This document shows, piece after piece, positions 1,893 to 59,263 of a stretch of DNA of 64,000 nucleotides. Position 1 is the stretch's first letter, and each line of letters begins with the position of its first letter. The notes beneath the pieces were generated by a model. It saw only the letters and a program-made list of their open reading frames with translations. It had not been told where the DNA came from and made no database searches. The DNA is from Corallococcus sp. (lineage in GTDB: Bacteria > Bacillota > Clostridia > Christensenellales > CAG-314), in the NCBI GenBank assembly GCA_023667435.1, contig JAMPAB010000003.1:3176-67175 (forward strand), read 5' to 3'. Both the position numbers and the translations under genes were made by a program.

Positions 1893-1990
1893 TATTGTAT
1901 CGTACACGAGCAATGCGGCTCGCAGAACTCGACAATCAACGTGATACGATGTAATAAACAGTAGCTAAGCGCCGTAGACGTAGTCTGTTG
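1893..1990 (-). repeat. Module C: degenerate minus-strand copy of the phased-repeat plus hairpin module, in the parAB leader
   Basis: Minus strand reads CAACAGACTACGTCTACGG..TTTATTAC, then arm ATCGTATCACG, a 31-nt loop (TTGAT...ATTGCT), and arm CGTGTACGAT plus ACAATA. The arms match module A1 and the loop ends match A2/B. Confidence 0.5.
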
Positions 1991-1994
1991 TTTT

Positions 1995-2023
1995 ATTGTA
2001 ACATAAATCGCAAACTTTTTCAA
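1995..2023 (-). promoter_or_regulatory. Sigma-70-type promoter TTGAAA-17-TACAAT facing parA
   Basis: Reverse complement of 2018-2023 is TTGAAA and of 1995-2000 is TACAAT, with an exact 17-nt spacer. It lies immediately upstream of module C. Confidence 0.6.
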
Positions 2024-3886: not shown

Positions 3887-5740
3887 TTGAAAAACTTCGA
3901 CGTCATCGTAATAGGCGCAGGACACGCCGGTTGCGAAGCTGCGTTAGCTTCGGCAAGATTAGGTTGTTCCACGTTGCTTTTGGCGACCAATTTAGATACG
4001 GTTGCCTTTTTGGCGTGCAATCCTAGCATAGGCGGCACGGCAAAAGGACAAATTGTAAAGGAAATCGACGCTCTCGGCGGAGAAATGGCTGTCAATGCAG
4101 ACAAAAGTCTTCTGCAAATGCGTATGTTAAATCGCGGCAAAGGACCTGCGGTTTACTCTCCGCGCGCTCAAGTAGACAAAAACGTATATCACGCAACGAT
4201 GAAGCAGACCGTAGAAAACACTCCTAATTTATATTTACGGCAGGGCGAGGCGACAAAAATCGACGTTAATTCCAACGGAACCTTTTCCGTTACAACCGCC
4301 GTAGGCTTATCCTATACGGCAAAATCCGTAGTGGTATGCTGCGGAGTATACCTCAATTCTAAGACCATTGTAGGGCAATGCGTCAAAAACAGCGGACCGA
4401 ACGGATTTTCAAATGCAAATTTTCTGTCTCAGAGCCTCGTTTCGTTAGGTTTTGCCGTACGTCGCTTTAAAACGGGTACTCCCGCGCGGGTAAGAATGAA
4501 GTCAATCGATTTAAATAAGACGACGGAGCAGCGCGGAGAAGAAGACGTTAAACCTTTTTCCTTCCTGACGGAAAGCATACCCGCAACAAAACGCAGCTGT
4601 TATCTTACTTATTCTACCGCTAAAACGAAAGAAATAATTCTGAAAAACAAACATCTTGCGCCAATATACAACGGAACGATAGACGGCACGGGACCGCGCT
4701 ACTGCCCGAGCATCGAAGACAAAGTAGTACGATTCGCCGATAAAGAACGTCATCAGATCTTCCTCGAACCCGAAGCGGAGGATACTTGCGAATTTTACGT
4801 GCAAGGCGCGTCATCGTCAATGCCTGCGGCAATTCAGGAACAGATTTATCACAGCATAGAAGGACTGGAAAACGTAGAAATCATGCGCGACGCGTACGCC
4901 ATAGAATACGACTGTATCGACGCAACGGAGCTCGATTCGGCTCTCATGTCGAAAAAAATCAAAGGTCTGTTTTTTGCGGGGCAGATAAACGGCACAAGCG
5001 GTTATGAGGAGGCAGGCGCGCAGGGTATAGTAGCAGGTATAAACGCCGAACGCTACGTTCACGATAAACCGCCCTTCACGTTACGCAGAGATAACAGTTA
5101 TATAGGCGTTCTCATCGACGATATAACTACAAAAGAAACCGTCGAACCGTACCGTATGATGACAAGCCGCGCGGAATACCGTTTGATTCTGCGTCAAGAT
5201 AATGCCGACTTACGTCTAACGGAGCTGGGAAAAGAAATCGGTCTCGTGTCCGACGAACGGTATCGAAAATTTCTTCACAAAAAAGCGCAGATTTCCAACG
5301 CGCAAAAGGAGTTGGCAAAGATTGTATCTCCCAAAATTTACGCTCCGCTTTTCAATGAAAAGAACGAGGTTGTAACAAACGCGGGAATGACGGTTGAGGA
5401 AATACTGAGACGCCCCAACATAACCGCAAAAGATATGCAGACGTTGGGATTTTTCAAAGACGTTGACGACGACGCGCTATACGAAATAGAAGTGGAATGT
5501 AAATATCGCGGATATATCGAAAAGGAAAACGAAGCAATCGCTCAGGCAAATAAGCTGGAAAGTAAACCTCTTCCGAAAGATATAGATTATGCGGCAATCG
5601 AAGGGCTGCGAATAGAGGCACGTCAAAAACTGAACAAAATACGTCCGCAAAATTTGGGACAGGCAGGGAGAATATCGGGAGTGTCGCCTGCCGACATACA
5701 AATTCTAATCGTTCACCTTTCACAAAAAAGATTAAAATAA
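3887..5740 (+). CDS. mnmG: tRNA uridine 5-carboxymethylaminomethyl modification enzyme MnmG (GidA)
   Basis: 617-aa ORF with the FAD-binding motif DVIVIGAGHAGCEAA. TTG start preceded by AGAGGAG. Confidence 0.9.
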   Translation: MKNFDVIVIGAGHAGCEAALASARLGCSTLLLATNLDTVAFLACNPSIGGTAKGQIVKEIDALGGEMAVNADKSLLQMRMLNRGKGPAVYSPRAQVDKNVYHATMKQTVENTPNLYLRQGEATKIDVNSNGTFSVTTAVGLSYTAKSVVVCCGVYLNSKTIVGQCVKNSGPNGFSNANFLSQSLVSLGFAVRRFKTGTPARVRMKSIDLNKTTEQRGEEDVKPFSFLTESIPATKRSCYLTYSTAKTKEIILKNKHLAPIYNGTIDGTGPRYCPSIEDKVVRFADKERHQIFLEPEAEDTCEFYVQGASSSMPAAIQEQIYHSIEGLENVEIMRDAYAIEYDCIDATELDSALMSKKIKGLFFAGQINGTSGYEEAGAQGIVAGINAERYVHDKPPFTLRRDNSYIGVLIDDITTKETVEPYRMMTSRAEYRLILRQDNADLRLTELGKEIGLVSDERYRKFLHKKAQISNAQKELAKIVSPKIYAPLFNEKNEVVTNAGMTVEEILRRPNITAKDMQTLGFFKDVDDDALYEIEVECKYRGYIEKENEAIAQANKLESKPLPKDIDYAAIEGLRIEARQKLNKIRPQNLGQAGRISGVSPADIQILIVHLSQKRLK

Positions 5741-5741
5741 T

Positions 5742-5778
5742 TGTACAGGTAACGCGGTTTAACCTCATTACTTGCGCA
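5742..5778. repeat. 35-nt palindromic intergenic element, copy 1 (degenerate)
   Basis: TGTACAGGTAACGCGGTTTAACCTCATTACTTGCGCA, 2 nt after the mnmG stop. Related to the copies at 13616 and 28233. Confidence 0.55.
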
Positions 5779-5794
5779 TTTTAATAAACTCAAA

Positions 5795-7273: not shown

Positions 7274-8980
7274 TTAAGGATTGTAGTTATTTATATTGTC
7301 CGTAAGCGTCTTCAATTTAGTCTGCATATACGTGGCGTAAGCGACGTTGCCCGTGTTGGTAGCGTCAAACGCCAAATTATTAGTCTTTATCGCCGACGAC
7401 GTATATTGAGCATACTTAGATTTAAAATTGTTCTTGTAATTGTCAAACGTCAACGCCGTCAACGCTTGCGAAGAATTTAACGTCAGCAAATTCTGACGGT
7501 ACAGACTAAGCGCAGATCCGCTGCCTGTGGGAGCGCCTTTATCTATAAGATTTATATACAGCGGGTTCGTTTGTCCGCCGCCCGTTGCCGCAACGGTACG
7601 GGTATACGGCGTAACGTTCATATTTGCGCTTCCTGTAGGATTCCAATCCTTCGTAATTCCCAAACATCTGTCGTAATCGTACGGAATAATTATCGCCCTG
7701 CCGTCGGCGCGGAAATACAAATAATAGTTGTTGTAATTGTTGCGTATACAGTCGGGGTTGCCTAATATGTAATTTACCGCTTCGAATTTTGCAAAATATT
7801 CTACGTCTATAAGTTTGGAATAATCGGCGTTCGACTTATTGAGAGCGGTGATAAAATTTTTAACGGAAGACAAATCGCGCAATCCCGTCGTTGCGTTTTT
7901 CTTTTTATTCGTCTTTTTATCGTAGCTGTAAAACTCTCCTTTCAACTCGTCCTCGACGCCTACGCGTTTGTCTAATTCGTTTGTCGTCAAATCGGCAGGT
8001 CCCGTTGTCGTATACGTACATTTCCACAAATCTCCGACTTTCGCCTCTCCGATGTTTCTGGTAACGAATACCTCGTCTATCGGTTCGTATATTCTGTATA
8101 CGCCTAAGTTTTTCTTCGTTTTATTTTTTTCCAGCGCCGTTAACGAACAAAGCGTAACGTTCGGCGCGTATATGCCGTTGTCGCGAAAAAGCTTCATAGC
8201 ATAAAGCTCGCGTACGTAAGTTTCGTCGGCGGTAGAATTATACTTGATATCTATTTTTTCCATTCCGCCGAGCGTTCTGTTTTTGCGCGCGGCGCGTTCG
8301 GACGCGTTAGACCAAACTTTTAACTCATCTTGCGTATAACCGTCGCTTACATCGTCAAACGTCTGCTTGAAAGACAGTTTCATATGTATATTGTTTGTAA
8401 ATCCGCCGTTCGAATAAAATGCGTGACGCGAAGTATTGCCTTTCATACGAACGCCGACTTCTTCGTAATAATAATTCAACCAACCGTTACCGTCGTCTAT
8501 TCCTATAATAACGCTGTTCGCCATTCGGTATATGGGAGATTTGCCGCCTTTGCTTAAAAAATCGATATAGTCCTGATTCAGTTTTTTCCACTCGGCGTCG
8601 GACATATCTATATCTATCGCAACCGTAGAATTTTCACTGAACAGCGCTTCGTAAACTTTATTTTCGCTTCCGGAAACGTACCTTGCGGTAAACGTTTTAT
8701 TTTGCGCGTAACTTTTCGAAGAATCGAATTTTTCGTCGCCGTAAAACCAACCGCTAAACGCATATCCGTCTCGATGAGGTTCTTCGCTCACCTGTACTTT
8801 TCCGTTTTCCTCGTAAGGATGCGCCGTCAACGTTGTCCCTCCGTCGGAAAAAACTCCTTCTCCCGACAAAAAAGTTATTACGACGTTCTCGTTCACGGGA
8901 GGATTCGCTTCGATCAGTCCGCAAGCCGCAAGCGATACGAGCATTATTGCTAGCAAGATGATTATCGCCGTTTTTTTCAT
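7274..8980 (-). CDS. CotH-family (spore-coat kinase-like) lipoprotein
   Basis: 568-aa ORF with a signal peptide and lipobox (LSLAAC), a GYAFSGWFYGDEKF repeat, and the CotH-like NNYYLYF..IIPYDYDRCLG motif. Confidence 0.7.
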   Translation of the reverse strand: MKKTAIIILLAIMLVSLAACGLIEANPPVNENVVITFLSGEGVFSDGGTTLTAHPYEENGKVQVSEEPHRDGYAFSGWFYGDEKFDSSKSYAQNKTFTARYVSGSENKVYEALFSENSTVAIDIDMSDAEWKKLNQDYIDFLSKGGKSPIYRMANSVIIGIDDGNGWLNYYYEEVGVRMKGNTSRHAFYSNGGFTNNIHMKLSFKQTFDDVSDGYTQDELKVWSNASERAARKNRTLGGMEKIDIKYNSTADETYVRELYAMKLFRDNGIYAPNVTLCSLTALEKNKTKKNLGVYRIYEPIDEVFVTRNIGEAKVGDLWKCTYTTTGPADLTTNELDKRVGVEDELKGEFYSYDKKTNKKKNATTGLRDLSSVKNFITALNKSNADYSKLIDVEYFAKFEAVNYILGNPDCIRNNYNNYYLYFRADGRAIIIPYDYDRCLGITKDWNPTGSANMNVTPYTRTVAATGGGQTNPLYINLIDKGAPTGSGSALSLYRQNLLTLNSSQALTALTFDNYKNNFKSKYAQYTSSAIKTNNLAFDATNTGNVAYATYMQTKLKTLTDNINNYNP

Positions 8981-12270: not shown

Positions 12271-12299
12271 TTGACAATTTAAAAGTTTGATTATATAAT
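12271..12299 (+). promoter_or_regulatory. Consensus sigma-70 promoter TTGACA-17-TATAAT
   Basis: TTGACA at 12271-12276, exact 17-nt spacer, TATAAT at 12294-12299. It points toward the modules and deoD, about 460 nt upstream of the deoD ATG. Confidence 0.65.
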
Positions 12300-12403
12300 T
12301 GATTCGGATACAGACTGCTCTCGACAGACTTAAATATTTCGGACAAGTAAATTTTATCGCCGTTTGCAGTATCTGTCATTCGATAATAGCATAAAAACAA
12401 TAA

Positions 12404-12509
12404 TTAACGACGTTTAATTACCATTAACTGCCGTTAACTACTTGCTATTACATCGTACACGCAATAGAGCAATTGTTATTGAAATATTCCGTTCGTGTAC
12501 GATATAATA
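12404..12509 (+). repeat. Module A1: four 10-bp-phased TTAAC/TTAAT hexamers plus hairpin
   Basis: Hexamers start at 12404, 12414, 12424 and 12434. Arms ATCGTACACG (12452-61) and CGTGTACGAT (12494-503), 32-nt loop, tail ATAATA. Confidence 0.7.
12479..12508 (+). promoter_or_regulatory. Promoter-like TTGAAA-18-TATAAT embedded in the A1 hairpin
   Basis: TTGAAA at 12479-84 and TATAAT at 12503-08. A predicted start would lie just upstream of the A2 TAACGACGT. Confidence 0.45.
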
Positions 12510-12523
12510 CAATACAACGACTA

Positions 12524-12629
12524 TTAACGACGTCTAACTACGTCTATCTGCTGCTAACTACTATTATACAACACATCACGTTGATAATAATATTTTGCAA
12601 TAAATGTTGCTCGTGTGTGTTATATAATA
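12524..12629 (+). repeat. Module A2: five 10-bp-phased YTAAC-like hexamers plus hairpin
   Basis: Hexamers at 12524, 12534, 12544, 12554 and 12564. Arms TATTATACAACACATCACG (12562-80) and CGTGTGTGTTATATAATA (12612-29), with a 31-nt loop. Offset from A1 is exactly 120 bp. Confidence 0.7.
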
Positions 12630-12735
12630 TAAACAAAAAACATTCGATTTACAATCAACAGAAATATCCATCGAATGGGAGTTATTATAAGTCAAAGTCA
12701 AAGTCAAATAAATATCATTCGATGATATAATATAA
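12620..12735. repeat. IR-bounded cassette, orientation 1 (upstream of deoD)
   Basis: Bounded by TTATATAATAT (12620-30) and ATATAATATAA (12725-35). Contains CATTCGAT(G) sites at 12641(+), 12669(-) and 12716(+), plus (GTCAAA)x3 at 12691-12708. Confidence 0.55.
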
Positions 12736-13585: not shown

Positions 13586-13615
13586 GTTGTAAAATAATAC
13601 TTGTTGTTTTCAATC

Positions 13616-13650
13616 GTACAAGTAACGCGTTTTAACGCGGTTACCTGTAC
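13616..13650. repeat. 35-nt palindromic intergenic element, copy 2
   Basis: GTACAAGTAACGCGTTTTAACGCGGTTACCTGTAC, between convergent deoD and pepV. Confidence 0.65.
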
Positions 13651-13655
13651 GTTAA

Positions 13656-17240: not shown

Positions 17241-17470
17241 AATATACGTTCAGACAGAATAATCGCCTTCAAACGAACGACTGTTCGTCAAAACCGCCTC
17301 GCACGTACCGCAAATACTATGATTGAGCGATACCGACAGTGAGCGTAAACCACCGTACGTATCAGCGGCTAAACGCAATATAAGTATAGCGCGCTATACC
17401 TTGCAAGCAGGCAAGTGCGCTTTTGCCTTACTTTCCGGTTTCGTTTCTATATAATAAAATACAACAGCTA

Positions 17471-17576
17471 CTAACGACGTTTAACTGATATTAACTACTG
17501 CCAACTGCTATTATACAACACATCACGTTGAATATAGTGTATTGCAGAAAATGTTGCACGTGTGCGTTATATAATA
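17471..17576 (+). repeat. Module B: five 10-bp-phased YTAAC hexamers plus hairpin, upstream of the TIR gene
   Basis: Hexamers at 17471, 17481, 17491, 17501 and 17511. Arms at 17509-27 and 17559-76 are near-identical to A2, with a 31-nt loop. Preceded by TATAATAAAATACAAC, as at the A1/A2 junction. Confidence 0.7.
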
Positions 17577-17676
17577 TCATCGAATGTTAAATTATCAATT
17601 CAAAGTACGAATAACTCACATTCGATGGATATTTCTATTAATTGCAAGTTGATTGTTTTTCGATTATATTATATAG
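17567..17676. repeat. IR-bounded cassette, orientation 2 (inverted relative to 12620-12735)
   Basis: Bounded by TTATATAATAT (17567-77) and ATATTATATAG (17666-76). The reverse complement of 17611-17656 matches 12651-12685 (blocks of 9/9, 18/18 and 7/7 nt) apart from an 11-nt insert. Confidence 0.55.
17642..17670 (+). promoter_or_regulatory. Promoter-like TTGCAA-17-TATATT facing the TIR gene
   Basis: The -35 hexamer (17642-47) lies in the 11-nt insert inside the cassette. The -10 hexamer (17665-70) lies at the right inverted repeat. Confidence 0.45.
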
Positions 17677-17711
17677 CAGAATGGTAAACAGTAATTTCAC
17701 GGAGGATAATT

Positions 17712-18572
17712 ATGAAGGCTTATAATGGCTTGTACCCTTACGCATTTATGTCGTATTCACATAAAGATGAAGATCGAATCGCGCCTCTAATAGACAAATT
17801 ACAAAGTGTCGGTTGTAATATTTGGTATGATGAAGGAATTTTACCCGCAGACGAATGGGCAGAGACTGTTGCAAAAAAACTCTCCGGCGCAACGCTTTTC
17901 TTTTTGATATTATCCGCTAATTCTATTGCTTCACAAAATGTCAAAAGAGAAATATATTATGCTGTTTCAAACAATATTCCGATATTAACTTTTTATTTGG
18001 AGAATGTTGAGCTATCTCAGGGGTTAAACATGCAACTTGGAATTTCTCAATCAATTCATACAAAAAACGACGTGGACATCGATTATGATAAAATAAAAAA
18101 TATTTTTCCAAAAGATATAATAACCGACGATGTTTTTGACATTATTCACAGCACGCCGAAGTTCGTATATGCCTTTTCACAAAAACAAGCATTAAACGAA
18201 TATTCCATTATTCAAATCGATAGAGAAACAAGACAACGTAAAATTTTATTTTTACATAAAGATAGCGCGGCATTCATCGCCGACTACAGATGTGAATCTT
18301 TGCATATATCTCCGAGTAATGAATTTAATTCCAATCAGGAGACAACGTTATTTTTCTCTATATATAGTGATTTAGATCACGATGCGGGAGTGCCGGCATC
18401 CGACCTTTATGTTCAGTCTGATTTTGCTATTACAAACCCAAACTCAAATGAGGCAATTTTACATATTCTCGGCGGTAGAATGAAGCAAAAAAATGATTCG
18501 TATGTAAATACTGAAGTTTTTTCGAATTCAGAATCAGTTTACTGGTTGAAAAATTATGTTGACGATGAGTGA
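17712..18572 (+). CDS. TIR-domain protein with an uncharacterised C-terminal domain
   Basis: 286-aa ORF: YAFMSYSHKDE..IWYDEG..LFFLILSANSIASQNVKREIYYA (TIR_2-like) over roughly the first 120 aa. The rest is not recognisable. GGAGG is upstream and the region is visibly AT-rich. Confidence 0.75.
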   Translation: MKAYNGLYPYAFMSYSHKDEDRIAPLIDKLQSVGCNIWYDEGILPADEWAETVAKKLSGATLFFLILSANSIASQNVKREIYYAVSNNIPILTFYLENVELSQGLNMQLGISQSIHTKNDVDIDYDKIKNIFPKDIITDDVFDIIHSTPKFVYAFSQKQALNEYSIIQIDRETRQRKILFLHKDSAAFIADYRCESLHISPSNEFNSNQETTLFFSIYSDLDHDAGVPASDLYVQSDFAITNPNSNEAILHILGGRMKQKNDSYVNTEVFSNSESVYWLKNYVDDE

Positions 18573-18860
18573 TATATAGATTATCTTTCGCCAAAAACAG
18601 ATACTGATATAGATAAACTGCAATTTATTGCGCAACTGTAAAAAAGCGGAGAATTAGGAATTTTTCGCTTTTTTTATATTTCCTATGGGAAGCGCGCTTT
18701 TAACTAATTTCTTTTTCATTCTCCCGAAGCGTACGGAGTTGCTGCCTTTAGCAATTCAATTTGTTTTTTTGCTCGCATGCTTCGGTATGCCGTCCATGCT
18801 CGGTTTAGCGAAACGCTGAAACTCATCTAAAAAGAAATTTGCGCTTGCCGTGTTCAGTAT

Positions 18861-18889
18861 TTGACACGACCGATAAGTAGTTGTATAAT
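18861..18889 (+). promoter_or_regulatory. Consensus promoter TTGACA-17-TATAAT upstream of the GtrA-like gene
   Basis: TTGACA at 18861-66, 17-nt spacer, TATAAT at 18884-89. Confidence 0.6.
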
Positions 18890-18930
18890 TTCGTTAATTT
18901 ATATTTCTAAAACGAACGGAGTTTGACGCT

Positions 18931-19533
18931 ATGGAGAATACCTCTCAAAAAAAGAAAATAAGCAAGAAAGAAATAATACGGGCTGTCAAATTTACGCTGT
19001 TTTCGATATCGGCAGGCGCGATACAAATGATTTCGTCTCTGCTGTTGCGTCTTGTTATACTTGAAAAATTCATTCCTGCCGACGCAACGATATTTTACAT
19101 TACGGAACTAAACGAAAATACGTTTATCGCCGACACGATAGGTTTGGCCCTTTCTATACTTTGGAACTTTACGTTCAACCGCAAGTTTACGTTTAAAGCG
19201 GCAAACAACGTACCCGTTGCGATGCTGCTGGCTTTCGTATTCTATATACCTTTCTACCATTTTCAGATATGGTACGTAGACGCCGTCGAAAAGAGTCTTG
19301 CAAGCATAGGCGACTGGGGATTCGTAATCGCTTTGGGAACCTGCATGATAATAAACTTCGTTTTGGAATTCCTTTGGCAAAACTTCGTTGTATTTCGCGG
19401 AGCAGTCGACACGAATAAACTTGCAAAAAAGGAACGGGAACGCGAAGCGGCAGTTTCGTCAAACGACGTTTCGGATACGCAGGAAATAACGGACGGTAAC
19501 GTTACTGATATAGAAAATTCGGCGAAAAAATAA
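18931..19533 (+). CDS. GtrA-family membrane protein
   Basis: 200-aa ORF with four predicted TM segments, the LSILWNFTFNRKFTFK motif and an acidic C-terminal tail. Confidence 0.7.
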   Translation: MENTSQKKKISKKEIIRAVKFTLFSISAGAIQMISSLLLRLVILEKFIPADATIFYITELNENTFIADTIGLALSILWNFTFNRKFTFKAANNVPVAMLLAFVFYIPFYHFQIWYVDAVEKSLASIGDWGFVIALGTCMIINFVLEFLWQNFVVFRGAVDTNKLAKKEREREAAVSSNDVSDTQEITDGNVTDIENSAKK

Positions 19534-19748
19534 TTACAATCGGGATTAGTTATGATGTAATTTGCAAACCGAAACGTCATTGAGGCGGTTTAGTAATGCG
19601 GATGCGGCAATCAAAATATTTTGCGGCCTGCGCGGCAAATGTGTGTTTTCTCATAGTTTGACAGTTCGCTACGTTCTCGCGCATATGCGGCATCGCGCGG
19701 CTAAACTTTCGCCATACGTTTCGAGGTTTTACTTTCTTTGACATGAAG

Positions 19749-19783
19749 AAGCGTCCCAAAAGTCAAGAGCTTTCGGGACGCTT
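19749..19783. terminator. Hairpin between convergent gtrA-like and mscL genes (possibly a bidirectional terminator)
   Basis: 9-bp stem AAGCGTCCC / GGGACGCTT with T-rich flanks on both strands. Confidence 0.5.
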
Positions 19784-19829
19784 TTGCATAAATACGCAAA
19801 CGATTGTTTAGCCGCCGCGTAATTACTTA

Positions 19830-20420
19830 TTATTTTCCTTGTTTTGCCTTCAACAATTCGGCGATTTCTTCAAGCAGCTGCGCTTCCGTTTTGGGAGCGT
19901 TCTTTGCCGCTTCTTCTTCGGCAATGCGAGCTTCTTCTGCAAGACGGGCTTCTTTTTCTTTCGCAAGAGCAAGTATTTCGGCATTCTTTTTGCCTTCCTT
20001 GCGGTAAGCGGCTATTTCTTCTTTTGTCAAGGGATCGTATTTGTGTATGCCCTTCCTTACTCCTTCGTTTGCGGCGTTGATTGCTTTAACAATGCAGAAC
20101 AACACGATAGCGATAAGAATGAAATTGATAATTGCGCTTATAAACGCGCCCCAGTCAATATAAATAGAGTTTGTAAGATCCAAAACTCTGTTTGCACCTT
20201 CTCCGGTGTATGCAGGCACCAACACGGTGTAAACTTTTTCCAACGCGTCGTTACCGCCTAATATTAACGCCAACAAAGCATTGATTAACGGCCTTAGTAT
20301 GTTGTTACTGAGCGCGTTGACGATTGCGGTAAACGCTCCGCCGACGATTACGCCGACAGCCATATCGAGAACGTTTCCGCGCATAATAAACGTTTTGAAT
20401 TCGCTGAAAAATTTCTTCAT
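19830..20420 (-). CDS. mscL: Large-conductance mechanosensitive channel MscL with a long charged C-terminal extension
   Basis: 196-aa ORF: FKTFIMRGNVLDMAVGVIVGGAFTAIVNAL... The last ~70 aa form a K/E/A-rich helix-like extension. Confidence 0.85.
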   Translation of the reverse strand: MKKFFSEFKTFIMRGNVLDMAVGVIVGGAFTAIVNALSNNILRPLINALLALILGGNDALEKVYTVLVPAYTGEGANRVLDLTNSIYIDWGAFISAIINFILIAIVLFCIVKAINAANEGVRKGIHKYDPLTKEEIAAYRKEGKKNAEILALAKEKEARLAEEARIAEEEAAKNAPKTEAQLLEEIAELLKAKQGK

Positions 20421-20894
20421 ATGTTTTCTCCTTATTGTTTTATTTTACCGAAAAAAATTATACTTTACATTATTTTCTTTTGCAAGCGATTTGACTATTT
20501 ATTTAAAACGCAATTTTACGTAGTCGCTCTATTCGCCGCGCGGCAATCGTTATGCGCGCGTTATACTTCGTCAAACCGCACTCACAGTACGTCCGGTACA
20601 GTCTCGTCCGGTTTTCCTCGTCTGACGACGTATTACATCCGCCCTCGCATCTATGCCTTCGGCGGTTTTCGCCGAAAAACTACTGCGTACCTACGGGGTT
20701 GCGGTATTGACACCATTGCGGAGCGTAAGCGTACTTGCGGTACGTGTTAGCTACGGAATATGGCAAGAACGCGCAAGATGCGCGTCGTAGGCTTGCAGAG
20801 TTCGAGCACTGTATGGCTAACCGCAAACCGTTGAATTATTACGGAAATTTTTTGCTTGCAAATAGCATTGGAAAAATTACATTTCGCAAAATTG

Positions 20895-20923
20895 TTGCAT
20901 ATTTGCAAAAAGTTTAGTATAAT
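20895..20923 (+). promoter_or_regulatory. Promoter TTGCAT-17-TATAAT upstream of tRNA-Pro
   Basis: TTGCAT at 20895-900, 17-nt spacer, TATAAT at 20918-23. Confidence 0.55.
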
Positions 20924-21068
20924 ATCAAAGCAAATAATATCGGACAATCGTTGCAGATACCGCGCTCGGTTGAAATTCTGCGTTTAACAGAGTTATCTGC
21001 AGTAGGGTAAAACAATTTCCGCGCTTATAAATACGCACAAGCAATGCGGCAACGACTTAATATAGTAT

Positions 21069-21144
21069 CGAGGTGTAGCGCAGTTGGTAGCGCGCTTGGT
21101 TCGGGACCAAGAGGCCATGGGTTCGAATCCCGTCACTTCGACCA
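21069..21144 (+). tRNA. tRNA-Pro (anticodon CGG), CCA encoded
   Basis: Manual cloverleaf: acceptor CGAGGTG/CACTTCG, D arm GCGC..GCGC, anticodon stem CTTGG/CCAAG with loop TTCGGGA, T arm ATGGG-TTCGAAT-CCCGT, then A-CCA. Confidence 0.9.
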
Positions 21145-21240
21145 ACACAGCCAAAACTACGGCTTTTTAAGGGTATTTTCGTAGTTTGGGCAATGTTTCC
21201 GCCCCTTTTGGGGCGGTTTTTCTTGCCTTTTTGCAAAAAA

Positions 21241-21630
21241 TTAGTCGGCGTGAGTGTCAAATTGAGTGTCAATTTTGGCAACCTCTTTTGCCTCAAAGTC
21301 GGCGTTAACGTGCGTGTAAACGTTCAACGTCATTTCAAGCGTAGAATGTCCGAGCCATTTTTGCACAACCTTTACGGCAATACCCTGTTCCGAACAGCGC
21401 GTTGCAAACGTATGTCGCAGCGAGTGTATGTTGATTCCGTCAAAGTTTAACCGCTTGCATATTTTCAACATACTGTTTTGATAAACTTTACGAGGATATG
21501 TAAAGACGTTACCGCTTTTGCCTTGTTCGAATAGTTCCGCCGTCCTGCTAAACATCGGCAGCGTTCGTATTGACGTTGCCGTTTTAGGCGTTGTTACGTT
21601 ACCCAAACTGTCAAATGTCCGCGATACCAC
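21241..21630 (-). pseudogene. Truncated tyrosine recombinase/integrase (C-terminal catalytic part only)
   Basis: 129-aa ORF with HSLRHTFAT and LGHSTLEMTLNVYTH (the H-x-x-R and Y regions). No N-terminal SAM-like or core-binding region. It lies 96 nt from the tRNA-Pro 3-prime end. Confidence 0.7.
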
Positions 21631-21669
21631 GTTGAATGTACAAGCACATATAACAATATACAGTTAATA

Positions 21670-21903
21670 ATGCAGAAGCGCGGAGAATGGTCGCCGCGTC
21701 AGAAAAAAATTGCCGAAACTATTCCTACGGTTAAAGGGTTGCCGTGCGGATCGCATAAGTTGATTTTCCAAGTTTACTATCTGGAAAAAGGCGACTGCGC
21801 CAAGCCATTCAATGACGCTATGAAAGAACATATCGACGGTAAGTTAAACGAATTCGTAAAAAAATTGAGAGAAACGTTAATCGAAATCAATAATTTACAA
21901 TGA
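21670..21903 (+). CDS. Hypothetical small protein in the island
   Basis: 77-aa ORF with no recognisable motif and a weak RBS. It abuts the next ORF. Confidence 0.3.
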   Translation: MQKRGEWSPRQKKIAETIPTVKGLPCGSHKLIFQVYYLEKGDCAKPFNDAMKEHIDGKLNEFVKKLRETLIEINNLQ

Positions 21904-21968
21904 TAGTTAACTATGCATCGGAAAAAAACAACAATGAAATAAATAATATTTATCAAACAGGAGACTGT

Positions 21969-23145
21969 ATGAACAAACAAGAACAACTGAATTACTTAAA
22001 AAACTCGTTAATGTATCAAATGTCGCTGGGTTCGAAGGAGTTGTACCATTCCAACGTTTGGGCGTGGCTTTTGGAAAAAGACCGCGAATACATAAAGGCA
22101 TTTTTCAATATCGATTTAACCGAGTTTGACAATAAATTCGAAGTCCGTCGCGAGCTTGCCCATCGAGATATTACGATATGGCTGCACAAGAAGGGATATC
22201 CCGATAATCAAGGGAAATGCTATCTAGTAATAGAAAACAAAATCAAGTCTTTGCCGACGAAAGAGCAATTGCAAGATTATACCGAAGATCTTGGGAATAA
22301 CGAATTGTTTGCTGCGACATATACGGGAATACGAAGCGTATTGAATTCCGAAGATAGAATTTGCAAAAACAAACGAGGTCATTACGTGGAATTTCCGTTC
22401 TTACAAAGATATTGCGGAAAGTATTGTAAAAATTACAAATGACAGTGACATTTCTGCAATAAAAGAACACAAGTCTCAAATTTTGGAGTATTGCCATATT
22501 GTTCAAGCGCTTAACGATTTGTTGGAATCGTCGTTGGATGATACAAAAAATATTTTGTCTTACAAAACGATGGAGAATTTAGAAGATGAGCGTATTCGTA
22601 TAGGTGACGTGTTTAAAAAATTAAAAGGCGCAGACTTTTTGGCGTATGTGCGAAAACGGAAAAATGAGTTGGATCAACTATGTCCTAAGTCTGAAGGATA
22701 TCGTCTGGCTATATGGCAAAGTTACAATAATAAACATGCGACTTTGGATATAAAGTTCTCTAATTGGACCGAAAATTGTTCGTCGTATTTTGACATAGGC
22801 ATACAGATTGAAGAATCGCAATATAGGCGTATGGCGTTGATTGACGGACAAACCGCGCGCAATCTTAATTCCGACAAGCCTGCCGAAACCTTTTTTGATT
22901 CGCTTGCCGACATTTGGTTTGACAAAAATTTCGAACCCAAACTAAAAGACCGCGTAATTTGGGACAAATCCACTAAATTAAAAAAGAAATTCGATTCGTA
23001 TACCACAGGACAATATTGTTTTATTTATCAGTATTGCAACATAGAAGAACAAAATAACAACATGCGTTACGAAGATTTATTCAATTGCCTTAAGGAAGAC
23101 CTAAAGAAAGCGAAAGAAATAATTGAAAAACGTGCTTTTAATTAA
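21969..23145 (+). pseudogene. PD-(D/E)xK nuclease-like gene split by a frameshift
   Basis: N-terminal part reads MNKQEQ..YHSNVWAWLLEK..HRDITIW..YLVIENKIKS (D..E-x-K). The reading frame switches near the A-runs at 22345-22385, and the continuation ..WNFRSYKDIAESIV.. is open from 22345 to 23145. AGGAGA precedes the ATG at 21969. Confidence 0.55.
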
Positions 23146-27903: not shown

Positions 27904-28232
27904 AACGTTACCTCCTTATTCTTTTCCTATACTAGTATATCATTATACCCCCCCCCGTTGTCAAGAGCGTATTTTACAAAATTCGACATTTTATGCGCTC
28001 CGCCGTAAAAACAGCCTACCTGCTTTGTTTCGTCGTTATCCGTAAATCGGAAAGCCGTCGTATCTGCAAATAACGCAGAGATTTTTAACTGCACGCACAA
28101 CATTCGTGCGGCGGCAACGGCGCGCCGCATAAATCTTACAAAGCGAACTTGCAGCGCGATTGTTTTACGTATGGAACTACTCGCGCGCAGTCAACTTTTA
28201 ATTTCGAAAACGTAATGTTTGCAATAAAAAAC

Positions 28233-28267
28233 GTACAAGTAACGCATTTAAAACGTATTACCTGTAC
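28233..28267. repeat. 35-nt palindromic intergenic element, copy 3
   Basis: GTACAAGTAACGCATTTAAAACGTATTACCTGTAC. The outer 10 bp of each arm are identical to copy 2. Confidence 0.6.
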
Positions 28268-28394
28268 ATAAATATTTAAGCTGATAGGCAATGAAGATAA
28301 GAGATCGATATGTTTCGAATTTACGACACATTCGCTTCGATGTGTAGAAACAACTATTTTATGTCGCGCGCTTACTAAACGAAGTCTGCAATAT

Positions 28395-28963: not shown

Positions 28964-30328
28964 TTAACGATTATAAATCTTATCCCTTATATCCTTAACC
29001 TGAGACGCAGTCCTGTCGTTATTTTTACACTCTTCGCTTATTTTATCGCGCGCGTGCATAACGGTGGTGTGATCGCGACCGCCGAAATATTCGCCGATAG
29101 ATACGAGAGGAATGCTTTGCCCTAAAATGTCGCAAATAAGATATATACATATCTGACGCGGAACTACGATTTCCTTATTCTTTTTCTTGCCTATAATATC
29201 CTCGCGCTTTACGTTAAAATATTCGCAAGTCGATTTTACTATACGGTCTATCGTAATTATATCGTTAGTTGCGTCGGCATAATCGCGCAAAGCGTCGCAA
29301 ACTATATCCATATTGTTGGGATCTCCGCCGACGAGAGTGGAATAGCTTATTATTCTGTTAAGCATTCCTTCCATTTCTCTTATGTTGTTGGTTATCTTTT
29401 CGGCGATAAGACTCAAAACGTCGATTGTCAAATTATATCCTTTTGCGCCGCATTTTTTCTGAAGAATAGCTATCCTCGTTTCCAAATCGGGCGGTTGAAT
29501 ATCCGCAATAACGCCTGTTGCGAAACGCGTTTTTAACCTTTCCTCTATTTTAATTTCTTTGGGAGGGCGGTCGCTGCTGAGAATAATTTGTTTGTCCGCA
29601 AGATACAGTTCGTTAAAAGTATGGAACATTTCTTCCTGCGTTCCTTCCTTGTTTGCAAGAAACTGCACGTCGTCCATCATAAGTACGTCTACTTTGCGAT
29701 ACTTACTGCGGAAATTTTTCATCGCGTTCGGATTTGTAGTATCGTGAAGCGATTCTATAAATTCGTTTACAAACTGGTCGCAAGTGACGTACATAATTTT
29801 CTTATTGGGAAAATTGCGTTGGAGAGAATTGCCTATCGCGTGCATCAGGTGCGTTTTCCCCAGTCCTACGCCTCCCCACAAAAATACGGGATTGTATTTA
29901 GTAGCGGAGTTTTCCGCAACGGTCCTGGCTACGGCCTCTGCGTATTCGTTGCTTTTGCCTACGACGAACGTGTCGAACGTATACTGCGATACAAATACCG
30001 CCTTGTCCTCCACGATAGAAACATAATTGCTGCTTACGGGCAAATCTACTTCTTTTTGAACGTTGCCTACGTTTTCCAAATCGTCTTCCGTTATTATTTC
30101 TATATCTATAATCGACGGAAATACAAGGTTGGCGCACTTCTTTATCGTATCTTTGTAGTTGTTGTCTACGATATTCTTCAAGGCGCGCGTTTCGGCGAGC
30201 AGAATAAGTCTGTCGCGGTAAATGCCTACCGGTTGCAGTTGGTTTATGTATAGGTCGTACTGCAACGTCGAAACTTTAGCTTCCGTTTCCAATAAGATAT
30301 TGTTCCATATTTGATTTATTTTAAGCAT
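28964..30328 (-). CDS. dnaA: Chromosomal replication initiator DnaA
   Basis: Walker A LWGGVGLGKTHL, box VII/sensor regions, and C-terminal ..GGRDHTTVMHA. Start set at MLKINQIW (Trp at residue 8, as is usual). The track ORF begins 6 codons earlier at a GTG. Confidence 0.9.
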   Translation of the reverse strand: MLKINQIWNNILLETEAKVSTLQYDLYINQLQPVGIYRDRLILLAETRALKNIVDNNYKDTIKKCANLVFPSIIDIEIITEDDLENVGNVQKEVDLPVSSNYVSIVEDKAVFVSQYTFDTFVVGKSNEYAEAVARTVAENSATKYNPVFLWGGVGLGKTHLMHAIGNSLQRNFPNKKIMYVTCDQFVNEFIESLHDTTNPNAMKNFRSKYRKVDVLMMDDVQFLANKEGTQEEMFHTFNELYLADKQIILSSDRPPKEIKIEERLKTRFATGVIADIQPPDLETRIAILQKKCGAKGYNLTIDVLSLIAEKITNNIREMEGMLNRIISYSTLVGGDPNNMDIVCDALRDYADATNDIITIDRIVKSTCEYFNVKREDIIGKKKNKEIVVPRQICIYLICDILGQSIPLVSIGEYFGGRDHTTVMHARDKISEECKNNDRTASQVKDIRDKIYNR

Positions 30329-30656
30329 AGTGATAACATTATACACTTTTTAAGTTTATTTTGCAACAATACGGCAACGCAACTTTACTTTCGAAGCAAA
30401 TAATTTGCGCAAAAAACGCAATGAAATTTTTACGAATTATATTAAAAACTGTTTATAAATTTTACTTTGAGGCAACACTTAGCCATATAGCATCCGAACA
30501 TACAAATTCGCCTGCGGAATAGAATTCGCGTCATTGCGTTTCAACGGCGTATTTGACGGTTTAAGCAACGGAATGTAACGGGAACGCCGAATATATCGCG
30601 TTGCGGAAAAAGCGGCGTTCGAACGCTATAGTTAACTCAAAAAGGAGACAATGTAT

Positions 30657-31307
30657 ATGGAACTTATCGAAAGTCAAACTTATATCAATCTTGCAAAAGC
30701 GTACTCGGGCGAAACTCAGGCTCGGACGCGTTACGAATTTGTAGAATACGGTATGCGCAACGAAGGTTACGTGACAATGGCGGAAATAGTAGATACCGTC
30801 GCATACCAGGAATTCAATCACGCGCGTATGTTCTACACGTATCTGCAAAAGGCGTCGGATAAACCTATTAAAAATATCGAATACAGCGCAGGTTTTCCTT
30901 TCAAAGAAAAATGGAACGTTACCGATAACGTAAAGTTTGCCGCAGAAGACGAGCATAACGAAGCGAAAATTTACCTGTCGTTCGCAAAGACCGCGCGCAA
31001 GGAAGGCTTCGAAGATATCGCCATTTTGTTCGAGCAAACGGCGGAGGTGGAAAAAATTCACGAAAGCATATTCGTAGAATTGCACGAGCAGCTTAAAGAT
31101 GGCACTCTTTACAAACGCGACGAACCGACAACGTGGGTGTGTTCCGCTTGCGGCTATCAGGCAACAAGTAAAGAAGGATGGAAGGAATGTCCTTTATGCA
31201 AGGCAAAGCAGGGCGCTATTTTGCTTAAATTAAAAAGCATGCAGGCAATTTCGGATACGTCCTCTCTGCTTTCGCTAAAAGATACGCGTTCTTCTCAAAG
31301 AGTTTAA
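30657..31307 (+). CDS. rbr: Rubrerythrin
   Basis: Ferritin-like E-x-x-H motifs (QEFNHARMF, EKIHESIF) plus a C-terminal rubredoxin-like C-x-x-C...C-x-x-C (CSACG..CPLCK). AGGAGA is upstream. Confidence 0.8.
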   Translation: MELIESQTYINLAKAYSGETQARTRYEFVEYGMRNEGYVTMAEIVDTVAYQEFNHARMFYTYLQKASDKPIKNIEYSAGFPFKEKWNVTDNVKFAAEDEHNEAKIYLSFAKTARKEGFEDIAILFEQTAEVEKIHESIFVELHEQLKDGTLYKRDEPTTWVCSACGYQATSKEGWKECPLCKAKQGAILLKLKSMQAISDTSSLLSLKDTRSSQRV

Positions 31308-31461
31308 TTGAGAAAAATAAAATCGCCTATACAAACGGTACGTCCTAAAGTCAAACGCTTCGGGGCGTACGTTTCACAAATACAAAAAGGTTGCGTACTG
31401 TTTTCCGCAACCTTTTTCGGTTATTCGTATTTATGAACGGTAATACGCCCGTTGCAATTCG

Positions 31462-32568
31462 TCAGACTATTTGCTTTACGGGCAAAATAAAGTAGAGCAC
31501 TTCGTCGCTGTCGTAAATAGTTATAACGCAGCTGTTGTGTTGCGCAAATTCCATTTTGATGGTTTCGGCGCTTATAACCTTTAAGCAATCGTTAATATAG
31601 CGAGAGTTATACGCGCATCTGACGTCCTTACCGGAAAGAGATATCGTAACGTTTTCCTTCGCCGTTCCGTATTGACTTGTGGAAGAGATATTCATATTGT
31701 ATTCTTCTATATTCAACACTACAAGATTATTCTTTTCGCTGCGCGACATTATAGACGCCGTGTTAAGCGCTTTTTCGAACGTCTCCTTGTTTACCACCAA
31801 CGTGGATAAGAAATCTTTCGGAACTATATTGTCGTACTTAATATACTGTCCGCCCAGCAATCTGGTGTATAATTTAGTATTTTCCATAGCAACCGTAAGA
31901 TAGTTGTTTTCGATGAATACTTTAAGTACGTTGTCGCTATCCGTAAGCAATTTCGACAATTCCGACAGACTTCTGGACGGAATTGTGGCGGAAATATAAT
32001 CAACCTTTTCTTCGAGAGCCTTTTTGCTCATTGCAAAACGGTAACCGTCGGTAGCTACGGCAGACAATGTGTATTCCCTCGCCTCGAAGTGTACGCCTTT
32101 AAGCATAGGTCTGCTGTCGTCGGTAGCTACGGCGAATATTACGTTGGTAATTATATCTTTAAGGTTGATTTCCTGAACGGCGAAGTAATTGGCGCCGTTT
32201 ATATTTTCCGTTTCGGGATAATCGGAAACGTCCAAAGTGCTTATGGTACACTCGCTGTTTGCCGAGCTGATAAACAGTCTGTTGTCGTCCGTTATTTCTA
32301 ACGAGATATCGCTTCCGTTATCGGCAATATTTCGGATATATTCTCCGAATATTCTTCCCGGCACAAGCATCGCTCCGCCGACGATAACGTTTGCGTCGAT
32401 CGTTTTTTCTATTGCAAGGTCTTTATCCGTAGCGTAAAGCGTCAATCTGTCATTCTCTGCGGACATCTTGATACATTCCAAAACGGGCGCCACGTCGCGG
32501 CTGGGCAACGCTTTCGAGACTTTTGCTATGGCATCGTTTAAATCGAGACTGTTTACAATGATTTTCAT
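31462..32568 (-). CDS. dnaN: DNA polymerase III beta sliding clamp
   Basis: 368-aa ORF with the typical MKIIVNSLDLNDAIAKVSKALPSR.. N-terminus and a three-domain length. AAGGAG is upstream. Confidence 0.9.
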   Translation of the reverse strand: MKIIVNSLDLNDAIAKVSKALPSRDVAPVLECIKMSAENDRLTLYATDKDLAIEKTIDANVIVGGAMLVPGRIFGEYIRNIADNGSDISLEITDDNRLFISSANSECTISTLDVSDYPETENINGANYFAVQEINLKDIITNVIFAVATDDSRPMLKGVHFEAREYTLSAVATDGYRFAMSKKALEEKVDYISATIPSRSLSELSKLLTDSDNVLKVFIENNYLTVAMENTKLYTRLLGGQYIKYDNIVPKDFLSTLVVNKETFEKALNTASIMSRSEKNNLVVLNIEEYNMNISSTSQYGTAKENVTISLSGKDVRCAYNSRYINDCLKVISAETIKMEFAQHNSCVITIYDSDEVLYFILPVKQIV

Positions 32569-32660
32569 AAGCAACTCCTTCTATAAGCTTTTCGTGTTTG
32601 ATTTTTTCTTTTGCGTTTACAAGTAATACTCTTTCTTTTGGTAGTAGTGTTATTAGACGT

Positions 32661-37551: not shown

Positions 37552-37580
37552 TTGAAATTGCGTTAAAATTAGGATATAAT
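37552..37580 (+). promoter_or_regulatory. Promoter TTGAAA-17-TATAAT immediately upstream of module D
   Basis: TTGAAA at 37552-57, 17-nt spacer, TATAAT at 37575-80. TAACGACGT begins 7 nt later. Confidence 0.6.
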
Positions 37581-37585
37581 AAAAT

Positions 37586-37673
37586 ATAACGACGTATAAC
37601 TGCCGTTGTACAACGCGTCACGGCGACAAACTGTATGCGAACGCAGCGGCCGGCTTTCCTGCGCGTAGTATAA
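37586..37673 (+). repeat. Module D: shortened copy (two phased repeats plus hairpin) in the leader of the SDR gene
   Basis: ATAACG 37586, ATAACT 37596, TTGTAC 37606 (10-bp phase). Arms TTGTACAACGCG (37606-17) and CGCGTAGTATAA (37662-73) give 12 pairs with one G-T and one mismatch. Confidence 0.5.
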
Positions 37674-37741
37674 GAACATTTGGATCGAACGTCCGAATAT
37701 CGGATAAACAAAAAACAAATACTGATTACGGAGGAGATATT

Positions 37742-59231: not shown

Positions 59232-59263
59232 GCGCCACAAGCACATACAACAGTCGCTTCGTG
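59232..59263 (+). repeat. 32-nt perfect direct copy of an internal rpmE coding segment
   Basis: GCGCCACAAGCACATACAACAGTCGCTTCGTG is identical to 59522-59553 (rpmE codons 10-20). It starts 4 nt after the nagA stop. Confidence 0.9.

Follow-up and report, generated by a model that had tools for sequence, protein, structure and literature searches.

The interval between the promoter and the start codon of deoD in this genome carries two adjacent copies of an arrangement in which short phased direct repeats precede a long imperfect hairpin. The question raised by the locus is what kind of element this is, and whether it belongs to deoD at all. In the first-pass annotation of the window (the whole 64,000-nucleotide stretch of DNA that was analyzed), it was described as a composite module of a previously uncatalogued kind, and this description holds, as all of the elements listed lie where they had been placed and neither Rfam nor known insertion sequences provide a match. 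In Rfam 15, there was no match to any unit at either gathering or permissive thresholds; the only match at gathering score was a tRNA elsewhere, and the best E-value in the region was 0.34, for a plant miRNA model. Searches with blastn against plasmids and phages returned no unit, and two pattern scans of viral contigs produced chance matches only. Inspection of the sequence gave no fit to the motifs of sigma-54 promoters (-24/-12), DnaA boxes, parS, IHF sites, dif, or the attC R-box.

Anatomy of the tandem units upstream of deoD

The two units, designated A1 and A2, are arranged head-to-tail in 12382-12629 and are 128 and 127 nt long, respectively (Table 1). The TATAATA heptamer at 12503-12509 is common to both, and A2 closes with a second heptamer at 12623-12629. 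The offset between the two is 120 bp, as originally reported, but the extent originally given to each unit was too small, and the true unit spans ~121 bp, from one TATAATA to the following TATAATA. Each unit consists, in order, of the heptamer, a leader of ~15 nt with the consensus AGCATACGAACAATAA or AACATACATAAC, a series of 10-nt repeats containing (Y)TAAC, and an imperfect hairpin, the 3' foot of which is the next heptamer. The units contain no ORFs and have a G+C content of 27-34%. Their left 80 nt are strikingly poor in G on this strand (4-14% G vs ~20% C) and are predicted by RNAalifold to be unstructured. A separate repeat, module X (12630..12735), adjoins A2 outside the unit and is an inverted copy of 17577-17683.

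Table 1. Positions of the units, their component parts, and the associated promoters within the window
Feature	Position	Strand	Description
Unit A1 (type 1)	12382..12509	+	In order: GATAATA, leader, phased repeats, hairpin, TATAATA
A1 phased repeats	12404..12443	+	Four 10-nt repeats, TTAAC/TTAAT, exact 10-nt spacing
A1 hairpin	12446..12509	+	Arms 12446-12461 / 12494-12509; loop 12462-12493 (32 nt); C.A at 12451/12504
Unit A2 (type 2)	12503..12629	+	Covariance model score 131 bits
A2 phased repeats	12524..12573	+	Five 10-nt repeats, starting at 12524/34/44/54/64
A2 hairpin	12562..12629	+	Arms 12562-12580 / 12612-12629; loop 12581-12611 (31 nt)
Unit B (type 2)	17450..17576	+	Ahead of a TIR-domain gene; model match 17450-17578, 128 bits
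Unit C (type 1)	1893..2000	-	parAB leader; model match 1889-2005, 85 bits
Unit D, decayed copy	37575..37673	+	Weak model match 37565-37677, 26 bits
Ancestral deoD promoter	12271..12299	+	TTGACA-17-TATAAT, 12/12 match
Ancestral parA promoter	2023-1995	-	TTGAAA-17-TACAAT; unit C directly behind
Ancestral SDR promoter	37552-37580	+	TTGAAA-17-TATAAT; unit D directly behind

The phased repeats of A1, starting at 12404/14/24/34, read TTAACGACGT, TTAATTACCA, TTAACTGCCG, and TTAACTACTT, while two of those in A2, at 12544 (CTATC) and 12564 (TTATA), are degenerate. The exact 10-bp phasing first recognized in A1 and A2 is a property of the family as a whole, as 19 units together have 109 AAC-AAC spacings of 10, 20, or 30 nt within their first 80 nt, against 3.5 ± 2.1 in shuffled sequences. 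The TAAC core is kept across units while the spacers vary, and the repeat half is the part of the unit best conserved between genomes. Cooperative binding of a protein to these repeats is plausible, judging from their spacing. The phase persists for ~7 turns and runs into the 5' arm of the hairpin, and the initial description of the repeats as feeding the hairpin is not supported by this, as the 10-nt phase merely carries on into that arm.

Read from the loop downward, the hairpin is composed of 4 bp of CACG/CGTG, a bulged T, six variable base pairs, a C.A mismatch, and then 5-7 A.T pairs that form the foot, TATTA(TA)/(TA)TAATA; in both A1 and A2 it terminates in TATAATA. In A2 the bulged T is at 12576 and the C.A mismatch at 12569/12622, and the bulge is missing from A1 and from a distant variant, L082. 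Hairpins are 64-69 nt long with loops of 31-32 nt, and the loop is loosely conserved, with TATTGCG followed by TAAA ~16 bp ahead of TATAAT. The variable pairs define arm type 1 (ATCGTA/TACGAT; A1, C, and most copies from metagenome-assembled genomes [MAGs]) and arm type 2 (AACACA/TGTGTT; A2 and B). The arms of copy D are AACGCG/CGCGT, and in L082 the upper helix is recast to AAAC/GTTT.

Complementarity is retained in all four of these arm variants, in agreement with the original claim that the arms change in concert. Among 16 aligned units, 97.5% of hairpin cells are paired and five pairs are doubly changed; with D and L082 included (18 hairpins), 95.4% of cells are paired, and the observed values were reached in none of 500 shuffles. 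The same helix was recovered independently by RNAalifold. The hairpin thus stays complementary through sequence change, and the covariation is real but shallow, because the changes trace to a few lineage splits (four arm types) rather than to many independent events. The C.A mismatch is itself constant, occurring in 16 of 16 aligned units and likewise in L051, L056, L068, and L082u1, and the sole copy with C-G at this position is the decayed copy D.

Both strands fold, whether as DNA or RNA, with z-scores of -3 to -5 overall. As DNA the two strands are similar, while as RNA the opposite strand scores -4.2 to -4.6 and the transcribed-sense strand -1.0 to -3.8. The first five copies had suggested that the opposite strand is the functional fold, as all of their stem mismatches were C.A or A.C, equivalent to G.U on the opposite strand, and RNAalifold applied to these early copies gave -14.9 kcal/mol for the opposite strand against -9.5 kcal/mol. 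This assignment was dropped, as the sporadic defects beyond the invariant C.A comprise four C.A and three G.U. The A.C defect of unit B in the window is a strain SNP.

Distribution of the units and their placement behind promoters

A covariance model (R1) built from 16 units returns five units at four loci in the 64-kb window and nothing more. These include the three related copies noted initially near 17471, 1893 (minus strand), and 37586, the last of which is recovered weakly. The initial view of A1 and A2 as founding copies of a five-member family proved too narrow, as the search for further copies in other genomes, recommended in the first-pass annotation, uncovered at least 17 further units, distributed over one sister strain and five additional sources, these being MAGs or metagenome contigs of Christensenellaceae/Clostridia. 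The tally across the window, the sister strain, and these five other sources is 21 full units plus decayed copies. Members occur in the sister strain GCA_023664405.1 (L045, L080), on at least five contigs of the Christensenellaceae MAG MGBC160019, in the MAG MGBC153675, on a 73-kb JGI metagenome contig (L051, L056), and on contig L068, with diverged members in the Clostridia MAG GCA_949060735.1 (L082-84). The evidence for the family is comparative and drawn from fragmentary MAGs, and diverged members such as L082 are under-sampled because the scans of sequence collections demanded exact patterns; the first pattern applied to JGI metagenomes gave no matches, and a looser one gave 30 loci, of which three were genuine. 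Units occur singly or in arrays of two to three with a period of 120-121 bp, and the order within arrays is often type 1 and then type 2, as A1-A2 illustrates. In ~140 kb from the nearest relatives, found via DeoD and SDR homologues, R1 detected no unit.

The relation of the units to promoters is best appreciated at the deoD locus, where the ancestral promoter is also present in L001, L006, and L076. The distance from this promoter to the ATG is ~35 nt in relatives vs 462 nt in the window, and the 462-nt interval is made up of an 82-nt stretch, A1, A2, and module X. The -35/-10 pairs at loci C and D are likewise kept in relatives without units, and it follows that the units lie directly behind pre-existing promoters. 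Promoter adjacency and co-orientation with the next gene, both proposed initially for the copies in the window, extend to several genomes. In 10 of 10 arrays with readable flanks, the array starts at the -10 box of a sigma-A-type promoter, as defined by a good -35, a TRTG motif, or both, with the L011 array starting at TTGACA-17-TATAAT and extended -10 boxes of the TRTGnTATAAT type present at L018, L020, L027, L051, L056, and L068. All 10 of these arrays are also followed by a co-oriented gene (P ~0.001 under random orientation), at a distance of 8 to ~480 nt. The products of the downstream genes are unrelated and include a purine nucleoside phosphorylase, ParA, a TIR protein, an SDR, a nucleosidase, NUDIX and HAD proteins, membrane proteins, and a 1433-aa surface-type protein; a regulon of phosphate or nucleoside genes was considered and dropped once these were listed.

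Some units also carry promoter-like sequence of their own. Within A1, a TTGAAA-18-TATAAT site (11/12 match), with TTGAAA in the loop and TATAAT at 12503-12508, could feed into A2, and a distal TTGAAA-16/18-TATAAT is found in A1 and L051b, that is, in some type 1 units only. A -35 element in the loop of every unit was rejected, as the TTGC(G/A)N sequence sits 20-22 bp from TATAAT, which is too far.

The window includes dnaA (28964-30346), dnaN, parAB, and rpmH-rnpA-yidC, with the GC-skew minimum at 28-30 kb, and the resemblance of tandem 10-bp direct repeats to iterons or ParR-type centromeres, together with the presence of one copy ahead of parA in what is an oriC/parAB region, might suggest a replication or partition element. 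This reading is very improbable and is largely refuted by the dispersed distribution of the units, which are found on at least five contigs of MGBC160019 beside housekeeping genes and at four loci in the window, in contrast to the single rep or par locus of iterons and ParR centromeres; moreover, their orientation tracks that of the gene rather than the direction of replication (A, B, and D on the plus strand, C on the minus strand), they contain no DnaA boxes or parS, and relatives with the same oriC gene set have no units. Equally hard to credit is the proposal that local segmental duplication left the units behind as neutral remnants, palindromic by chance and under no selection for structure or activity. 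Tandem units can indeed arise by slippage, and D and several others are decaying, but several genomes have the family in common, at loci that are not homologous and between flanks that are unrelated; the four arm variants stay complementary, the bulge and the C.A mismatch are kept, and copies on different contigs are 95-97% identical.

Copy-number change, dispersal, and the nature of the unit

Comparison with the sister strain indicates how arrays change in size. At locus A, L045 (GCA_023664405.1) is 99.9% identical to the window, while locus B contains two diverged units in L045 and one in the window, a 121-bp indel. Unit B of the window is a chimera of the left half of B1 and the right half of B2, and this, along with the 121-bp difference, is the signature of unequal crossover. 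As judged from this alignment, it is clear that arrays gain or lose whole units through unequal crossover of neighboring units. There is also a clear case for dispersal. In MGBC160019, the type 2 units on three contigs are 95-97% identical, while the neighboring type 1 units are only 69-84% identical, and the high identity ends within a few bases outside the heptamers. Identity bounded in this manner, next to diverged neighbors, implies that single units spread recently, and these contigs provide the demonstration, at the level of sequence, that single units have newly arrived at unrelated promoters inside one genome.

The parA, SDR, and deoD promoters are conserved in relatives without any unit. 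No exact filled-versus-empty pair was recovered at any one site: the exact-protein look-up for an insertion polymorphism at locus C returned no record for ParA, and that for locus D found the SDR only in the sister MAG, with identical spacing. TATAATA (7-10 bp) flanks every unit on both sides, and the right-hand heptamer doubles as hairpin foot and array junction. At locus C, the variant TACAATAAAA stands on both sides, which fits a target duplication or a crossover core but could equally mark where C once joined a second unit, now decayed, on its downstream side.

Taken together, the patchy distribution, empty orthologous sites, copy polymorphism, near-identical copies, and unrelated downstream genes argue that the units are an interspersed and probably mobile repeat. 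The best explanation, to which we assign about an even chance of being correct, is that they constitute a lineage-restricted, ORF-less repeat of ~121 bp interspersed behind the -10 boxes of host sigma-A promoters, and that this repeat is a small non-autonomous mobile element. Its behavior is that of a small mobile "promoter/leader cassette" rather than of a switch devoted to a single gene, and the unit, whether mobile or only recombining, is probably non-autonomous and transcribed together with the gene as a leader. A dedicated regulatory leader is not what the evidence indicates, given the promoters that are empty in relatives, the copy-number change between strains, the near-identical dispersed copies, and the unrelated genes that follow.

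For the preferred explanation, a working model would begin with a trans-acting protein, encoded elsewhere, that moves the unit. This protein would recognize the irregular hairpin, probably as folded single-stranded DNA, along with the TAAC repeats phased by one turn, and would integrate the unit at, or recombine it through, -10-like TATAATA heptamers. As the heptamer is asymmetric, the unit would be oriented with the gene automatically, and both the promoter adjacency and the fixed orientation would be explained. Once inserted, the unit would be read through as a G-poor, unstructured leader followed by one hairpin, and would restore a -10 box at its distal end or, in some units, a full -35/-10 promoter. 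With the distal -10 restored, the host gene would stay expressed and the insertion would be tolerated, and regeneration of the heptamer at the distal end would account for the growth of arrays.

Several observations count against a mobile element. No transposase, integrase, recombinase, or HUH gene was found in the annotated part of the window, and of the 75 Pfam families detected in 56 flanking proteins, the 25 commonest include no transposase, integrase, recombinase, or HUH family. Y1 transposase and TnpB were likewise absent from the annotated part of the window and from the 25 listed flank families, no RAYT gene was found in the DNA examined, and Rfam detected no IS605-type RNA. Beyond TATAATA/TATTATA, there are no terminal inverted repeats above the level of shuffles in 17 units (left end vs reverse-complemented right end). 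The ~20 other TATAATA heptamers in the window that carry no unit, as well as the lack of a clean filled/empty pair, weigh in the same direction, and the presence of the heptamer at each end could stem from a junction that array members share, not from duplication of a target.

That the units adhere so strictly to promoters and to the orientation of the gene could instead be the result of selection for a function, and a binding site for a host regulator would also account for the high conservation seen between genomes in the repeat half. It is possible, if unlikely, that the unit is a portable cis-regulatory cassette in which the phased TAAC/GTTAR repeats form an operator for an OmpR/PhoB-type winged-helix or ribbon-helix-helix protein bound head-to-tail on one face of the helix. 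With its site just past the transcription start, such a protein would block the upstream promoter; viewed from the opposite strand, it would serve as activator of a TGnTATTAT promoter that has no -35. The inverted repeat would provide either a second site for protein or a cruciform, sensitive to supercoiling, that covers the distal -10. OmpR/PhoB-type regulators bind direct repeats at 10-11-bp spacing overlapping the -35 region, and direct repeats of this periodicity are present in the units. The exactness of the 10.0-bp phasing for up to 7 turns, with TAAC conserved and the spacers variable, speaks for an operator, as do the conserved repeat half and, in 12 of the 19 units, GTTAR repeats on the opposite strand that lie ahead of TGnTATTAT at about -28 to -75. 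However, an overlap of the repeats with a -35 region is seen on the opposite strand only, in a direction often without a gene, and in at least five arrays transcription from the opposite-strand promoter would head into tRNAs or into the upstream gene at its terminator or 3' end. The downstream genes are also without common function, the entire 121-bp unit is tandemly repeated, which is more than a binding site, no regulator gene is linked to any unit locus, and the same promoters are found in relatives without units.

A functional RNA leader, in which the hairpin with its bulge and mismatch and the G-poor UAAC repeats act in the mRNA, is rather improbable. The leader might be bound by an RNA-binding protein or by RNase III/Y, serve as a 5' stabilizer or processing signal, or bring about pausing or antitermination in concert with the -10-like sequence of the non-template strand. 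In its favor, the unit starts a few nucleotides past the -10, where the 5' end of the transcript is expected, and is invariably co-oriented in the 10 readable arrays; no structure is predicted for the G-poor left 80 nt, the arms covary, and RNAs that proteins recognize typically have irregular hairpins of this kind, with fixed defects. Yet the sense-strand hairpin is less stable than that of the opposite strand because of the invariant C.A, the exact 10.0-nt phasing makes no evident sense at the RNA level, Rfam contains no relative, and the distance to the start codon varies from 8 to ~480 nt ahead of unrelated genes. The copy number also differs between strains with no sign of compensation. 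The operator and the leader both deserve to be taken seriously as rivals, but neither is incompatible with mobility, and these explanations are not mutually exclusive.

A more specific version of the preferred mobile repeat, which we regard as doubtful, is that the units represent a class of ORF-less integrative cassettes that target the -10 of active promoters by means of an attC-like or IS200/IS605-like hairpin, with its constant bulged T and C.A mismatch, and single-stranded integration, with a recombinase bound to the TAAC repeats. The TATTA foot encoded by the element would pair with TAATA of the target heptamer, and integration would occur on single-stranded promoter DNA in a fixed orientation, regenerating the target each time and allowing arrays to lengthen downstream of the promoter. 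In this scheme, the recombinase would use the 10-bp-phased TAAC repeats as arm-type binding sites. If true, this would provide a dedicated molecular mechanism for "mobile promoters/operators".

Relation to known repeats and implications

The BOX elements of Streptococcus pneumoniae are ORF-less Firmicute repeats in which the number of tandem modules varies between strains and for which stem-loops are predicted when transcribed (PMC3049150). They can sit upstream of genes and affect expression, the mechanism by which they are mobilized is unclear, and pneumococcal repeats are over-represented between convergent genes (PMC3049150). The units resemble BOX in having tandem modules that vary between strains, as at locus B with one unit in the window and two in L045. 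In contrast, BOX consists of boxA and boxC ends around boxB(n), while the arrays described here contain complete units only, joined by a -10-like heptamer and bordered on both sides by unrelated host sequence. There is also no apparent sequence similarity, and all 10 readable arrays lie upstream of a co-oriented gene, at the -10. Correia elements (CREE) of Neisseria are 100-150-bp non-coding repeats near genes that can form RNA hairpins and whose ends can create promoter elements (PMC2649163). In these respects the units are similar and, as with CREE and other MITEs, they occupy many dispersed loci with insertion differences between strains. However, CREE are defined by long terminal inverted repeats, and the units have none beyond the A/T heptamer, their inverted repeat being internal and sub-terminal on one side only, while the head-to-tail arrays and 10-bp phased direct repeats of the units are both lacking from CREE.

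The likeness to REP/BIME lies in extragenic palindromic units, tandem clusters of different "types", and a maintained hairpin, and the last of these, shared by both, suggests a single-stranded intermediate. REP sequences are short (20-40 bp), G+C-rich, imperfect palindromes marked by a conserved 5' tetranucleotide; most are located downstream of genes, and their orientation often alternates, whereas the units are 121 bp, A+T-rich, head-to-tail, and upstream of genes. In integron attC sites, structure is conserved over sequence: the feet stay constant, the inner arms vary yet remain complementary, and certain extrahelical or mismatched bases are fixed. The units share the constant feet and fixed defects, as well as head-to-tail arrays behind a promoter with the same junction core, but their feet are TATTAYA/TAYAATA rather than the RYYYAAC/GTTRRRY of attC, and attC-like GTTTAAC/GTCTAAC is found only inside their direct repeats. 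They also have no cassette ORFs, intI, or attI and are spread over many loci instead of one platform. The ends of IS200/IS605 elements or PATEs have hairpins at both ends, and the units one hairpin at one end; riboswitches are associated with one gene class, in contrast to the unrelated genes behind the units. The units fail the defining features of BOX, Correia, REP, and attC and belong with small interspersed repeats, and their own mechanism is possibly novel. There is precedent for an enzyme acting from a distance, as REPINs are mobilized in trans by a single-copy enzyme located elsewhere (PMC8049555, PMC3575422).

Putative mobile promoters, as described by Nijveen, Matus-Garcia, and van Passel, are homologous promoter regions before non-homologous genes, both within a genome and from one genome to another, with the mechanism unknown (PMC3575422). 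The units are 70-97% identical before deoD, parA, TIR, SDR, nucleosidase, NUDIX, HAD, and membrane-protein genes and fall within this operational definition. The class itself is operational and without anatomy, while the units have a defined junction, phased repeats, and a hairpin.

Small interspersed repeats are usually located where they are least harmful, downstream of genes. The niche of the units is the opposite, between the -10 and the gene, in sense orientation, and with a -10 rebuilt behind them. For annotators, this implies that the arrays should not be taken for gene-specific riboswitches or origins. If the units are mobile, they would represent a sequence-defined example of promoter-proximal sequence copied between unrelated genes. 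If they are instead a host operator or leader, they would reveal a sizeable new regulon or RNA-protein system in uncultured, abundant gut Clostridia.

Module X and the sequence flanking the arrays

At both locus A and locus B, which lie upstream of deoD and a TIR-domain gene, respectively, a second repeat, module X, is positioned between the gene and the array of ~121-bp promoter-embedded units. Module X is delimited by inverted TATATAATAT(C/A)ATCGAA ends, contains repeated CATTCGATG motifs, and carries a promoter-like site (TTGCAA/TTGTAA-17-TATATT) that is directed toward the TIR gene at locus B and back into the array at locus A. Its orientation in the sister strain (GCA_023664405.1) is the same as in the window. 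Module X may be a MITE or, alternatively, an invertible promoter segment. The copy upstream of deoD also harbors a perfect microsatellite, (AAGTCA)x3.3, at 12689-12708 (TRF score 40). For the 82-nt stretch ahead of unit A1, the first unit of locus A, no counterpart is present in the relatives, and no repeat was matched.

Repeats and genes within the window and at L082, with their positions
Feature	Position	Strand	Description
Module X	12630-12735 (locus A); 17577-17683 (locus B)		~106 bp; opposite orientations; copies 86% identical
82-nt stretch	12300-12381		separates ancestral deoD -10 from unit A1
TIR-domain gene	17712-18572
tRNA	21069-21141
PD-(D/E)XK nuclease-family gene	21900-22442
dnaA	28964-30346	-
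dnaN	31462-32574	-
REP-like palindrome family	2154-2199; 5739-5783; 13612-13655; 28228-28272		also in L006 and L007
32-nt direct repeat	59232-59263; 59522-59553		copies 100% identical, 290 bp apart; family D14 of the repeat scan
Two diverged tandem units	L082 3380-3600 (GCA_949060735.1)		behind TGTTATAAT promoter

Genomic setting of the window

The coincidence of dnaA and dnaN (28964-32574) with the cumulative GC-skew minimum indicates that the chromosomal origin lies within the window. Both genes are on one strand, where dnaN precedes dnaA. Compared with L001 and L006, two relatives with the ancestral deoD promoter, the window has the gltX-radC-M20 block in inverted orientation. Adjoining gltX, the TIR-domain gene, the tRNA, and the PD-(D/E)XK nuclease-family gene constitute a stretch (17712-22442), and because its place is taken by other genes in relatives, this stretch may represent a variable or defence island. 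The REP-like palindromes (GTACAAGTAACGCG ... CGCGTTACCTGTAC) sit directly past gene ends, are shared with relatives that have no 121-bp units, and are probably terminator-type repeats.

Arrays outside the window

At L020 (735-760), a NUDIX gene has its start codon 7 nt past the terminal TATAAT of the array, with no Shine-Dalgarno sequence before it. This arrangement appears to be leaderless and would rely on the distal -10 of the unit. The NUDIX ORF contains a frameshift. At L021 (~7300-7560, minus strand), the array is followed by ~110 nt and then by an intrinsic-terminator-like hairpin with a T-run, which falls well ahead of the next gene, and the promoter, array, and terminator could together define a small stand-alone transcript. 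The gene downstream of the tandem units at L082, a locus from a Clostridia MAG, encodes a metallophosphoesterase. With regard to the two fixed defects of the unit hairpin, the first L082 hairpin keeps the C.A mismatch and lacks the bulge, and its upper helix is different. The diverged units at L082 therefore imply that the unit family is wider than exact-pattern scans reveal.
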